This document shows positions 981 to 34,694 of a stretch of 52,109 bases of DNA, in pieces. The notes under the pieces were generated by a model. That model ran no database searches. It saw only the letters and a program-made list of their open reading frames with translations, and was not told where the DNA came from. The DNA is from Escherichia coli (GTDB lineage: Bacteria; Pseudomonadota; Gammaproteobacteria; Enterobacterales; Enterobacteriaceae), in NCBI RefSeq assembly GCF_003334815.1, contig NZ_QOWO01000029.1. One strand, given 5' to 3'. How positions within the stretch are numbered: position 1 is the first letter of the stretch; every line of letters starts with the position of its first letter. A program made the translations under genes and the position numbers.

Positions 981-3221
981 TCAGAAGTGGGTGTTTACGC
1001 TCATATACCACGTACGTCCCGGCTCGTTATAGGTATACGCCCCGGCACCGGCGATATAGTTGGCCCCTGCCAAATCGCCCGTGGTCTGGGCATTACCCGC
1101 ACGCCACAAACGTTTGTCGAACAGATTGTCCACGCCGCCGGTCAGACTGACATTCTTCGTCACATCCCAGGTCGCGCTCAGGCCAACAATGCTGTAAGGA
1201 CTAATTTCTTTGGTTTCCGGTCCAACCGCTGGCTGACCTTTATAGTTGTACTTCTTCGGCTGCTGCTTGCCGTACCAGGTGAAGGTCGTTTGCATCGACA
1301 AATCTTCCCGTGCCTGCCAGCTCAGCGTTGAGTTCAACGTATACTCCGGGATGATCGACAAACGGTCGCCCGTGGTTTTGTTTTCACTCTTCAGCATATA
1401 AGTGATGTTATTGGTCCACATCACCGTTTCGCTAACCGGTACGTTTAACGATCCTTCCAGACCTTCAACCACCGCTTTCGGCACGTTATCCCACTGATAG
1501 AGATCGGTGCCGACTGCGTTTTGCCCTACAGCCACATAGCCCGCTTCAATCTTATTGCGATAATCGTTACGGAACCAGGTGACGCCCGCCAGCCACCCGT
1601 CGCGTTTGAACTCCAGACCAATCTCTTTGTTGATGCTGGTTTCTACTTTCAGGTCATCGTTACCTTGCAGATAGCAGCCGCCCGCGCTGGCATAGCAACC
1701 CTGACCTTTACTGTAGAGAATGTAGTTCGGGTTAGTCTGGTACAGGCTCGGCGCTTTATAAGCACGGGCGATGCCCATTTTCAGCGTGAAGTCATCGCCT
1801 AAACCTTGCGATATGTTCAGCGCCGGGCTCCAGTTATTGCCGACAATACTGTGATGATCGAAACGCAGCCCCGGCGTTACGATGGTGCTGTCAGTCAGCT
1901 CCATGTTGTTTTCGGCAAACAGCGAGAAAATTTCTGCTTTTGAATACGGGCTACGGTCGGTGGTACTCACGCCATCAATAGCGCCACCGGTATTCGTTCC
2001 GGTCAGTGCCTGGGTGTTGGAACTTAAGTCCTTCATCCGTTGCTGATTCCACTCCGTACCCAGCGTCAGCGTCTGGTTAACGAGGAAATCAATCGGCAGG
2101 TTAACTTCGCTGTGCAGCATCACGTCATCAAGATCGATATCGACGAAATCCTGTGTCGCTTTTTCGTTAAATTTCCCTTCGGTACCGCCCGCCAGACCTT
2201 CCGGAATACGCGAGTTACGGGTGTGTTCGTACTGCACCCAGTTGCTGGTGGTCACGCCGTTATCCCAGCCACCGTTCCAGGTCAGCGCGTAGTTCTGGCG
2301 ATACAGACGGTTGGTTTCATCGCCATATTTCGAGCGGGTATAGGAATCGGAGTTGGTATTCTGGGTGTCGCCCGCATACAGGTTACCCTGGCGGCTGTAA
2401 CCTGCTTCCAGTTCCAGCGATTGCAATGGCGCGAAATCCCAGCGCACCACGCCATTAATATCTTTGTTGATTACCCCTTCGCGCCCGGCTGGTAACGTCG
2501 TGGCATACGTTCCGGCACGCGCGGACTGATGGCCCTGGTTGATATCCCACGCGTCAGCCTGGGTTTTGTCGAGGTTGCCATACAAACGGAAGCTGAATTC
2601 GTCGCCCAGCGGACCGGTCAGGCTAAAGTTAGTGCGTTTGGTGGCACCTTCCTCTTTATGTTCTGGCGCATTGAAATATGCGTCCCAGGAGCCGTGCCAC
2701 TCGCCGCTGCCTTTTTTGGTAATGATGTTAACCACGCCGCCCGCCGCGCCGTTGCCATAACGCGCAGCTGCCGGACCACGCAGAACTTCAATACGTTCAA
2801 TCATTTCAGGTGGCACCCAGGAAGTATCACCACGGGTATCGCGCTCGCCACGCCAGCCCTGACGCACCGAGTTACGGCTGCTTACCGGCTTGCCGTCAAT
2901 CAAAATCAGCGTGTTTTCCGGACCCATACCGCGAATATCAATCTGTCGGTTATTCCCACGCTGACCACTGGTGGAGTTACCGGTCAGGTTAACGCCTGGC
3001 ATGGTACGGATGATCTCCGACACATCGCGGGCAACCGGGTTTTTGCGGATTTCATCTGCGGTGATGGTCGAAACGCCAGGCGCCTGTAAGTTCTGCTCGG
3101 CGGCGGTAACGACAATAGTATCGTCATGTGAAACAGGAGTATCGGTCGGCTCTTGTGCCTGCGCTACCCCATAAATCCCCAGATTGACCAACAAGGCCAG
3201 GGAATGAATCTTCTTGTTCAT
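981..3221 (-). CDS. fepA: TonB-dependent ferric enterobactin outer-membrane receptor (746 aa)
   Basis: Signal peptide MNKKIHSLALLVNLGIYGVAQA, TonB box DTIVVTA and C-terminal ...YMSVNTHF with terminal Phe. Start placed at the internal ATG at 3221 rather than the track's extended start. Confidence 0.95.
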   Translation of the reverse strand: MNKKIHSLALLVNLGIYGVAQAQEPTDTPVSHDDTIVVTAAEQNLQAPGVSTITADEIRKNPVARDVSEIIRTMPGVNLTGNSTSGQRGNNRQIDIRGMGPENTLILIDGKPVSSRNSVRQGWRGERDTRGDTSWVPPEMIERIEVLRGPAAARYGNGAAGGVVNIITKKGSGEWHGSWDAYFNAPEHKEEGATKRTNFSLTGPLGDEFSFRLYGNLDKTQADAWDINQGHQSARAGTYATTLPAGREGVINKDINGVVRWDFAPLQSLELEAGYSRQGNLYAGDTQNTNSDSYTRSKYGDETNRLYRQNYALTWNGGWDNGVTTSNWVQYEHTRNSRIPEGLAGGTEGKFNEKATQDFVDIDLDDVMLHSEVNLPIDFLVNQTLTLGTEWNQQRMKDLSSNTQALTGTNTGGAIDGVSTTDRSPYSKAEIFSLFAENNMELTDSTIVTPGLRFDHHSIVGNNWSPALNISQGLGDDFTLKMGIARAYKAPSLYQTNPNYILYSKGQGCYASAGGCYLQGNDDLKVETSINKEIGLEFKRDGWLAGVTWFRNDYRNKIEAGYVAVGQNAVGTDLYQWDNVPKAVVEGLEGSLNVPVSETVMWTNNITYMLKSENKTTGDRLSIIPEYTLNSTLSWQAREDLSMQTTFTWYGKQQPKKYNYKGQPAVGPETKEISPYSIVGLSATWDVTKNVSLTGGVDNLFDKRLWRAGNAQTTGDLAGANYIAGAGAYTYNEPGRTWYMSVNTHF

Positions 3222-32594: not shown

Positions 32595-32814
32595 AACCCT
32601 TTCTCCCTGTTAATCATGAACAAATCATTCGCCATGATTATAATATTTATCCCTGATATTTGTCTGGTTCTTTTTCCTTACGAACTGTTTCTGTGATGAA
32701 TATATTCTCACTGAACACCAGGAATTCTCCCAAAACCTGTGGTACCGCCCGTTTTCCCGCTGTGATAGCTACCCTTAAAGACTGACTCTTTTTTGAACTG
32801 TCTCTGGAGGTTGC

Positions 32815-34053
32815 ATGAAAGCATTGACTTATCACGGCCCACATCACGTTCAGGTAGAAAATGTTCCCGATCCGGGCGTTGAACAGGCAGATGATATTAT
32901 TCTGCGTATTACGGCAACGGCGATCTGTGGCTCTGACCTCCATCTTTATCGAGGCAAAATACCTCAGGTTAAACATGGCGATATTTTTGGTCATGAATTT
33001 ATGGGGGAAGTAGTTGAAACCGGAAAGGACGTAAAAAATTTGCAAAAAGGCGACCGAGTGGTAATTCCGTTCGTCATTGCTTGTGGCGACTGTTTTTTCT
33101 GTCGATTGCAACAATATGCCGCCTGCGAAAATACCAATGCGGGTAAAGGCGCTGCGCTCAATAAAAAACAGATACCAGCTCCAGCGGCATTGTTTGGTTA
33201 TAGTCACCTGTATGGCGGCGTTCCTGGTGGGCAGGCGGAATATGTCCGCGTCCCTAAAGGGAATGTGGGGCCGTTTAAAGTACCGCCTTTGCTTTCAGAT
33301 GATAAAGCGCTTTTCCTTTCTGATATTCTGCCAACGGCATGGCAGGCAGCAAAAAATGCGCAGATCCAACAAGGTTCAAGCGTTGCAGTCTATGGTGCTG
33401 GTCCTGTGGGATTGTTGACAATCGCCTGTGCACGGTTGCTCGGTGCGGAACAGATTTTTGTTGTTGATCATCATCCCTACCGCTTGCATTTCGCCGCCGA
33501 CCGCTACGGCGCGATCCCGATTAATTTTGATGAAGACAGCGATCCGGCACAGTCAATTATTGAACAAACGGCAGGTCACCGGGGCGTGGATGCAGTAATA
33601 GACGCCGTCGGTTTTGAAGCGAAAGGCAGCACCACGGAAACGGTGCTGACTAACCTGAAACTGGAGGGCAGCAGCGGTAAAGCGTTGCGTCAGTGTATTG
33701 CGGCGGTCAGGCGTGGCGGCATTGTTAGCGTACCGGGCGTCTACGCTGGATTTATTCACGGTTTCCTGTTTGGCGACGCCTTTGATAAAGGGTTGTCGTT
33801 TAAAATGGGACAGACCCACGTTCACGCATGGCTGGGAGAATTATTACCGTTAATTGAGAAAGGATTACTGAAACCAGAAGAAATTGTTACCCACTATATG
33901 CCGTTTGAAGAGGCCGCCCGGGGATATGAGATTTTCGAAAAACGTGAAGAGGAGTGCCGTAAGGTGATTCTGGTACCCGGTGCACAAAGCGCAGAGGCGG
34001 CGCAGAAGGCGGTTTCAGGTCTGGTGAATGCGATGCCGGGGGGAACAATATGA
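32815..34053 (+). CDS. ybdR: Zn-dependent medium-chain alcohol dehydrogenase-like oxidoreductase (412 aa)
   Basis: GHEFMGEV zinc-ligand motif, Cys cluster CGDCFFC and NAD site GAGPVGL. Confidence 0.9.
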
Positions 34054-34056
34054 TCG

Positions 34057-34146
34057 TCAGGAGTGGTTTTCGAGGTAAAGGACAGCCATGACGATAATCG
34101 CCGCCATAATCAGAAATCCTATCAGGATGTAAAATGCTTCTGCCAT
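34057..34146 (-). CDS. Candidate 29-aa single-pass membrane peptide (hypothetical)
   Basis: ATG at 34146, MAEAFYILIGFLIMAAIIVMAVLYLENHS, one hydrophobic helix, weak SD-like gggaat upstream. Unsupported by homology here. Confidence 0.25.
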   Translation of the reverse strand: MAEAFYILIGFLIMAAIIVMAVLYLENHS

Positions 34147-34283
34147 GGTTATTCCCACAAACGAAACGGAATAATTTTGCAGCAAAAGTGAACAGTGAGA
34201 ACCAGGAAAAATTGCTGATTTTGCGTAAAGAGGATGCGAGTGCATCCTCTGGGCAAAGCGAGTTATCGCTTGTGCAGATGGGA

Positions 34284-34694
34284 TTAAAGCAGGTAGTCGC
34301 CAGCAGCTTCTGGCTGGTATTCGAGTTCCAGCACTTCAAGGTGGGTTGCAACGCCGCCCGGAAGTTCCCAGTGAATGGAATCGCCAACGCGCAGCCCCAG
34401 CAGTGCGGCACCTACCGGAGCCATAACGGAAAGCTGAGTATTGCTATCGGTCATTTTTGCCGGATACACCAGCGTGCGCACACGCACTTCGCCATCGCTA
34501 AGATTGCGGAATTTAACCCGGCTGTTCATTGTCACCACGTCGTGTGGCATCTCTTCTGGCGAACACATTTGGGCGCGATCCAACTCTGCGTTTAACGCGT
34601 CGGCGATTGGCAAACCAGCATAGGCGGGTTGCTCCAGCAGAATATCGATGCGTTCGGCATCCAGGTCGTTAATGATGATAGTTGGTCTGGACAT
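34284..34694 (-). CDS. rnk: Regulator of nucleoside diphosphate kinase, GreA/GreB C-terminal-domain-like (136 aa)
   Basis: 136-aa ORF of the expected length and position. Confidence 0.88.

Follow-up and report, generated by a model that had tools for sequence, protein, structure and literature searches.

The open reading frame at 34057-34146 on the minus strand of the window, the 52,109-nt stretch of Escherichia coli DNA that we analyzed, is the known small membrane protein gene yldA, and it is genuinely protein coding. Profile comparisons show its product to be a probable distant homolog of YoaI, a small membrane protein of 34 residues, but not a YoaI equivalog. As a whole, the best explanation of the locus is that it carries yldA (b4734), the gene for a protein with a single transmembrane (TM) helix that is distantly related to YoaI; we give this explanation a probability of roughly 85%. 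The features on which the analysis draws are listed here by window coordinates.

32815..34053, plus strand: ybdR, the convergent neighbor (ORF list and annotation)
34057..34146, minus strand: coding sequence of yldA (b4734), with 29 codons and a TGA stop; the product is a single-pass small membrane protein (ORF and translation)
34057..34245, minus strand: 62-aa ORF, an over-extension of yldA and not a real product
34147..34170, minus strand: conserved 5' leader, with a weak Shine-Dalgarno (SD)-like GGGA at 34156-34153 and a CGTTTC block about 20 nt upstream (sequence and alignment of 35 spacers)
34227..34250, minus strand: intrinsic terminator-like hairpin of rnk, AGAGGATGC-ACTC-GCATCCTCT followed by a short TTT tail
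34284..34694, minus strand: rnk, the upstream neighbor on the same strand, which serves as syntenic anchor for yldA in every genus examined

Over the stretch that we compared (MG1655 641800-644200), the window is identical to MG1655, and window position 1 corresponds to MG1655 609274. The MG1655 record places yldA (b4734, YP_009518757.1) at 643330-643419 on the minus strand, also between ybdR and rnk and with the same sequence as the window ORF. Translation from the ATG gives the peptide MAEAFYILIGFLIMAAIIVMAVLYLENHS, whose UniProt entry is YLDA_ECOLI. Against the NCBIfam equivalog NF041476, "small membrane protein YldA," this peptide scores 57.9 bits (E 7e-16; curated cutoff 45 bits), residues 1 to 29 aligning to positions 1 to 29 of the 29-position model, and it matches the Pfam family PF23689, "YldA-like," with 72.8 bits (E 1.4e-20). 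A 401-base query across the ORF found a match in 5423 of 5426 complete E. coli genomes, and the complete records with the window version carry the PGAP annotation "yldA: small membrane protein YldA" at exactly the same position.

A sequence-only reading of this stretch had described the ORF as unannotated, which is wrong, because it is b4734 in the K-12 reference and bears the PGAP label in complete genomes. The novelty that this description implied is likewise unsupported: the gene has been in the K-12 reference since a small-protein study of 2018, and NCBI and Pfam models of it exist. The same reading had the ATG, the 29 codons, the peptide, the strand, and the coordinates right. It also placed the stop 3 nt from that of ybdR on the opposite strand, and the two stop codons indeed lie at 34057-34059 (yldA) and 34051-34053 (ybdR, TGA).

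The protein itself has been detected. VanOrsdel et al. (2018) tagged the identical 29-aa protein with a chromosomal epitope and observed it by immunoblotting (PMC6001520 Table 1), so the tagging experiment that the sequence-only reading had proposed was already published with a positive result. In rich medium, expression from the native locus is enough for the tagged protein to accumulate (PMC6001520). A later Ribo-seq study includes yldA, with a DNA sequence identical to that of the window ORF, among its "Previously known sORFs." In the portion of an acid-stress Ribo-seq supplement that lists yldA, the values beside the gene look small or nonsignificant, the meaning of the columns not being labeled there. 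The sole clue to when the gene is expressed is induction by NaF in one RNA-seq study, in which yldA belongs to a 100-gene cluster induced under anaerobiosis together with osmotic-stress genes, psp, phoPQ, rstAB, and mgtA/mgtS (PMC10100675). The published record on YldA comprises existence and expression only; we found no experiment on its function, partner, topology, or localization in the literature that mentions it.

The annotation of one complete genome differs. In E. coli CT02 (NZ_CP081698.1; L003:408-458), PGAP gives a 16-aa "hypothetical protein" beginning at the internal Met14 instead of yldA. We considered a mutant form and rejected it, as the DNA is identical to that of the window; the 16-aa form is an annotation inconsistency.

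Because the peptide is too short and too hydrophobic for direct homology searching, we anchored loci on Rnk and scanned 80 loci of close Rnk relatives from other Enterobacteriaceae species for YldA-like ORFs. Such an ORF was present in 34 of the 80, with alignment scores of 67 to 137, versus at most 37 for the best ORF of each of the other 46. The positive loci come from Escherichia, several Citrobacter, Enterobacter, Lelliottia, Leclercia, Pseudenterobacter, Kosakonia, and Phytobacter. In all 34 loci, the ORF starts with ATG, has exactly 29 codons, and lies about 140 nt 3' of rnk on the same strand.

The pattern of variation among these orthologs is that of a coding sequence. Across 35 distinct sequences, entropy at codon positions 1, 2, and 3 was 0.69, 0.50, and 1.21, mean pS was 0.61 versus a mean pN of 0.24, and median dN/dS was 0.235; the C-terminal half is the most constrained part of the protein (pN 0.17). 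Mean pairwise identity over 35 loci was highest within the ORF (0.69); it was 0.50 for the 40 nt upstream and, at 0.30, no better than random for the 40 nt downstream. Residues M1, E3, A21, V22, L25, and E26 are invariant, and I7, A16, V19, L23, and Y24 are nearly so (consensus MxExLxITLxFLIxxAIIVxAVLYLERHW). We conclude that yldA is under purifying selection as a coding sequence. Conservation with synonymous drift in relatives was another check named in the sequence-only reading, and it is what the third-position variation displays. The core of that reading, a real, translated, single-pass small membrane protein, is thus supported by the chromosomal-tag immunoblot, by purifying selection, and by a length that is fixed in 35 loci.

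Short ORFs are abundant, with 436 ATG ORFs of 25 to 70 aa in the window, and one could arise by chance in the 3' region shared by rnk and ybdR without encoding a functional protein. Among those 436, the best 19-aa Kyte-Doolittle mean of the yldA ORF (2.97) is equaled only by its own 62-aa extension. This hydrophobicity and the coding conservation across genera are more than chance. The ORF is also retained in two deeply divergent E. coli haplotypes, and its length is invariant across genera, with third-position variation and a dN/dS of 0.24. Together with the detection of the protein by chromosomal tagging, the cross-genus coding conservation refutes a chance ORF, to which we attach a negligible probability.

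Among the 80 Rnk-anchored loci, yldA was absent from Salmonella, Kluyvera, and many Citrobacter. At the negative loci, including those of both sampled Salmonella subspecies, the gap after rnk is too short for the gene, so yldA is cleanly absent rather than decayed. Whatever role yldA has must therefore be dispensable in these lineages.

Translation of YldA starts at the conserved ATG (34146), behind a weak conserved SD-like sequence. The sequence-only reading had noted such a sequence, and the GGGA indeed ends 6 nt 5' of the ATG; in an alignment of 35 rnk-yldA spacers, orthologs keep GGGGA or GGGA at the same place together with a (c)GTTT(c/t) block. We weighed two longer products, the 62-aa protein from the ATG at 34245 and a 33-aa form from a GTG four codons upstream of the conserved start. 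Many older E. coli records still annotate the 62-aa form, and the window shares the GTG at codon -4 with 9 of the 34 loci from other species. Against both stand the SD-like motif that precedes the 29-codon ATG, the curated YldA family models, which are 29 positions long, and the 11 of 34 other-species loci with a stop 8 to 9 codons upstream of that ATG; no alternative upstream start is conserved across the 34 loci. The in-frame ATG at codon -33 is found in the K-12-type sequence only, and a search with the 62-aa ORF returned only Escherichia-type sequences, one of them labeled Vibrio cholerae. In addition, that ATG (34245-34243) sits in the 5' arm of the rnk hairpin, and this position, together with the lack of a conserved upstream start, argues that the 62-aa ORF is an over-extension, as the sequence-only reading had suspected. 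We regard either longer product as extremely improbable. A reader working without tools was able to recognize a real gene for a small protein, with the right start codon, in the raw sequence.

The hairpin just 3' of rnk appears as a 9-bp stem at 34250-34229 in the predicted RNA fold of 34140-34290 (z = -3.8). Across 35 loci of many genera it takes the form GAGGATGC-loop-GCATCCTC-TTT, with an almost invariant stem and a variable loop. On the predicted fold, it is likely the rnk terminator. The T run is too short for a simple terminator scan, which missed the hairpin. With a tail of only three T residues, the strictness with which the stem (GAGGATGC/GCATCCTC) is conserved is unusual for a terminator; the hairpin might have a second role, for example in RNA processing or in the stability of an rnk-yldA transcript.

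The spacer between rnk and yldA (34161-34225, minus strand) is otherwise variable and contains two conserved blocks, TCA(c)CC about 10 nt after the terminator and TTA-at-cGTTTc 15 to 30 nt before the ATG, whose spacing is unlike that of a sigma-70 promoter. Neither the promoter scan nor the spacer alignment revealed a recognizable promoter upstream of yldA, no -35/-10 pair being assignable in the alignment. The only promoter-like (TTTACA-16-GATTAT) and terminator-like scan hits fall at 34086-34133 on the minus strand, inside the yldA coding sequence, and we discounted them because such hits occur at about chance frequency. As yoaI is PhoB regulated, we looked for a Pho box in the spacer by eye and saw nothing convincing or conserved. 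A promoter of its own within the 75-nt spacer could drive transcription of yldA; alternatively, transcription could run on from rnk, since the three-T tail of the terminator makes read-through possible.

At the other end of the gene, the 3-nt distance between the stops of yldA and ybdR means that the 3' ends of the two transcripts must overlap, and RNA-seq has identified ybdR and yldA as a convergent excludon, an overlapping transcript pair (PMC12288877). This arrangement bears on the possibility that YldA is a type I toxin-like membrane peptide, in the manner of TisB, ShoB, or DinQ, held in check by antisense RNA from the convergent ybdR 3' end. YldA, with 29 residues and a very hydrophobic sequence, resembles TisB (29 aa), ShoB (26 aa), and DinQ (27 aa) in size and hydrophobicity, and overexpression of its relative YoaI prolongs lag phase (PMC11429745). 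Unlike the genes for these peptides, yldA has neither a cognate antisense sRNA nor an Rfam hit (no family at E <= 1 in 33900-34500), and it is under purifying selection. The only possible antisense transcript, the ybdR 3' end, is missing from many yldA-positive lineages, in which yldA keeps the same form without a convergent partner. Moreover, tagged YldA accumulates from its native locus in rich medium, where cells tolerate this level of expression, no antitoxin-like sRNA is found at the locus, and the gene is single copy and syntenic, unlike most type I toxin genes. We consider a toxin function very improbable.

The neighborhood of yldA varies considerably, both among species and within E. 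coli. Of 80 loci (L004-L083), 12 have both ybdR and yldA between rnk and uspG, 21 have yldA only, 10 have ybdR only, and about 34 have neither; because all four combinations occur, the two genes have been gained or lost independently. Within E. coli, the rnk-uspG interval exists in two deeply different versions (about 32600-34223 in the window and 2707-3000 in locus L002). Complete genomes with ybdR and the K-12-type yldA number 3601, and in about 1818 genomes, which are B2-like and include the B2 type strain ATCC 11775, ybdR is missing and yldA is present as a second allele. This second allele encodes MSEALGITAFYIFIAAIIVAAVLY(F/L)EQRW, with 48% protein identity to the K-12 type. Its common Leu25 form is identical to the protein of E. 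albertii (L006) and one residue away from that of Escherichia sp. MOD1-EC7003 (L004). The K-12 allele is closest (72 to 76%) to the type found in a strain of Citrobacter amalonaticus (L019) and a Citrobacter metagenome-assembled genome (MAG; L020). Similarity between the two E. coli versions resumes at about 34223, just downstream of the rnk terminator. These comparisons suggest that the two haplotypes may reflect an old replacement or introgression, not ordinary drift. The cluster of the second allele also contains four proteins of 51 aa (P0027, P0031, P0037, and P0038), which are rare and occur on few contigs; in P0027 a changed stop codon adds 22 residues, and for the other three we have the length only.

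YoaI (E. coli b1788; NCBIfam NF041475) is a PhoB-regulated small inner-membrane protein of 34 aa. For the window YldA, its model is the second-best NCBIfam family (E 8.7e-5, 22.5 bits, against a cutoff of 45). The same held for all nine diverse YldA orthologs that we searched: NF041475 ranked second among 18,950 families (E 1e-7 to 1e-3, 19 to 32 bits), and in eight of the nine the register placed YldA residue 3 on YoaI residue 8. In the reverse search, YoaI matched the YldA model NF041476. Six composition-preserving shuffles and four unrelated single-TM small proteins gave no match to either model at E <= 10.

We also built our own YoaI hidden Markov model (HMM) from YoaI relatives gathered by exhaustive search. 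Real YldA proteins scored a median of 22.3 bits against it (range 14.3 to 32.6). None of 3000 full shuffles exceeded 10.6 bits, and so none attained the lowest real score; when the termini were fixed and only the core was shuffled, none of 3000 reached the real median and 18 of 3000 reached the real minimum. Alignment of the two family alignments with hhalign gave a probability of 96.7% (E 3.7e-10) over 27 ungapped columns, YldA 2-28 versus YoaI 7-33. In this ungapped register, 16 of 29 columns have the same consensus residue in both families, and invariant columns coincide at E3/E8, I7/I12, V22/V27, and E26/E31. Of the YoaI residues reported as invariant, Ser26, Val27, and Glu31 (PMC11429745), the latter two are matched by Val22 and Glu26, which are themselves invariant in YldA, and invariant Ala21 stands opposite Ser26. 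Both proteins end three residues after the invariant Glu.

Two short helices that share a boundary motif (VLxLER) could also have come to resemble each other by convergence, without common descent, in which case YoaI would be uninformative about YldA. The sequences have only 29 to 34 residues and a biased composition, convergence is harder to exclude for short TM helices than for globular proteins, YldA scores below the YoaI family cutoff, and Pfam does not link the two. The similarity is, however, position specific in the helix core as well as at the termini, as seen in the core-only shuffles, none of which attained the real median. The alignment is ungapped with coinciding invariant columns, the matches are reciprocal, and YoaI is the second-best family for every YldA ortholog. 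We therefore judge convergence to be quite unlikely, and we favor homology of YldA and YoaI.

Linking the two families requires profiles: when YoaI was compared by phmmer with 1.84 billion representatives, all 23 matches had a YoaI-like segment and none was YldA-like. Pfam has no family for YoaI and no YldA-YoaI link, and NCBIfam keeps the two as separate equivalogs. The relevant literature that we found mentioning YldA does not discuss YoaI, and the YoaI paper mentions no paralog or homolog. As far as the sources covered extend, the link is not on record, and it is the sole new element of this analysis.

The two proteins and their genes have further traits in common. YldA, like YoaI, has a single TM helix, an acidic N terminus, and a four-residue tail that begins with the invariant Glu. 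Gene architecture is also similar: yoaI (L084:8079-8183; MG1655 1874078-1874182) converges on yeaK with 0 nt between the annotated ends, much as yldA converges on and abuts the 3' end of ybdR, so the 3' ends of both small genes must overlap a convergent transcript. Unlike YoaI, YldA is five residues shorter at its N terminus, its gene lies at another locus, and its distribution is patchier. Given the missing N-terminal residues, the sub-cutoff score, and the Ala in place of Ser26, partner specificity may well differ.

What YldA does may be approached through what YoaI does. Two-hybrid assays show that YoaI binds EnvZ, and EnvZ-OmpR reporters are activated by it. Both effects need the invariant Glu31, which lies in a predicted four-residue cytoplasmic tail: E31A and E31Q abolish EnvZ binding and activation alike (PMC11429745). 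By analogy, YldA may work like YoaI as a single-pass modulator of a larger membrane protein, a proposal that we hold tentatively, at somewhat below even odds. By homology with YoaI, YldA would insert into the inner membrane in an N-out/C-in orientation. Its partner would then be a larger membrane protein, for which a sensor histidine kinase is the most plausible candidate, and the YldA helix would pack against the transmembrane or juxtamembrane region of that partner. The electrostatic contact that decides the interaction would come from the invariant Glu26 in a four-residue cytoplasmic tail (E-R/N-H-W/S), the counterpart of Glu31 in the contact between YoaI and EnvZ. That the partner would be EnvZ specifically seems improbable to us. 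The two divergent E. coli alleles of yldA might differ in their affinity for a partner.

The mode proposed for YldA, a small membrane protein that alters the output of a histidine kinase, is that of MgrB with PhoQ, MzrA with EnvZ, and SafA with PhoQ (PMC11429745, PMC12648545). YldA has no detectable sequence relationship to MgrB, MzrA, or SafA. Functional segments in the periplasm or cytoplasm are present in those proteins, but YldA extends only about four residues beyond the membrane on either side.

The main alternative to a signaling modulator is a subunit role, in which YldA would assist or stabilize a transporter or a respiratory complex, comparable to AcrZ with AcrB, KdpF with KdpABC, or CydX with CydAB; the conserved Glu would then anchor the helix at the membrane boundary or contact the complex. 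In favor of such a role, YldA consists of little more than one TM helix, and accessory function is common among the small membrane proteins characterized so far (review, PMC12648545). The gene has no conserved operon partner, however, as its neighbors rnk, ybdR, uspG, and rna encode soluble or periplasmic proteins and vary between lineages, and the only detectable relative of YldA acts on a sensor kinase. We consider an accessory subunit unlikely, and the remaining probability for the function of YldA is spread over minor rivals and roles that we did not consider.

As a gene discovery, this result carries no weight; it offers one modest, testable lead, the link to YoaI. That relationship makes the function of the orphan protein YldA directly and cheaply testable, with EnvZ, other sensor kinases, and Glu26 as the places to begin. 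It is possible, if somewhat doubtful, that YldA and YoaI belong to one family of tiny single-pass proteins with a Glu tail, whose members had not been linked before, and that YldA, like YoaI, tunes a two-component sensor kinase, EnvZ or another, through Glu26. If this is true, envelope and osmotic signaling in E. coli would receive input from a second small protein that is regulated differently.
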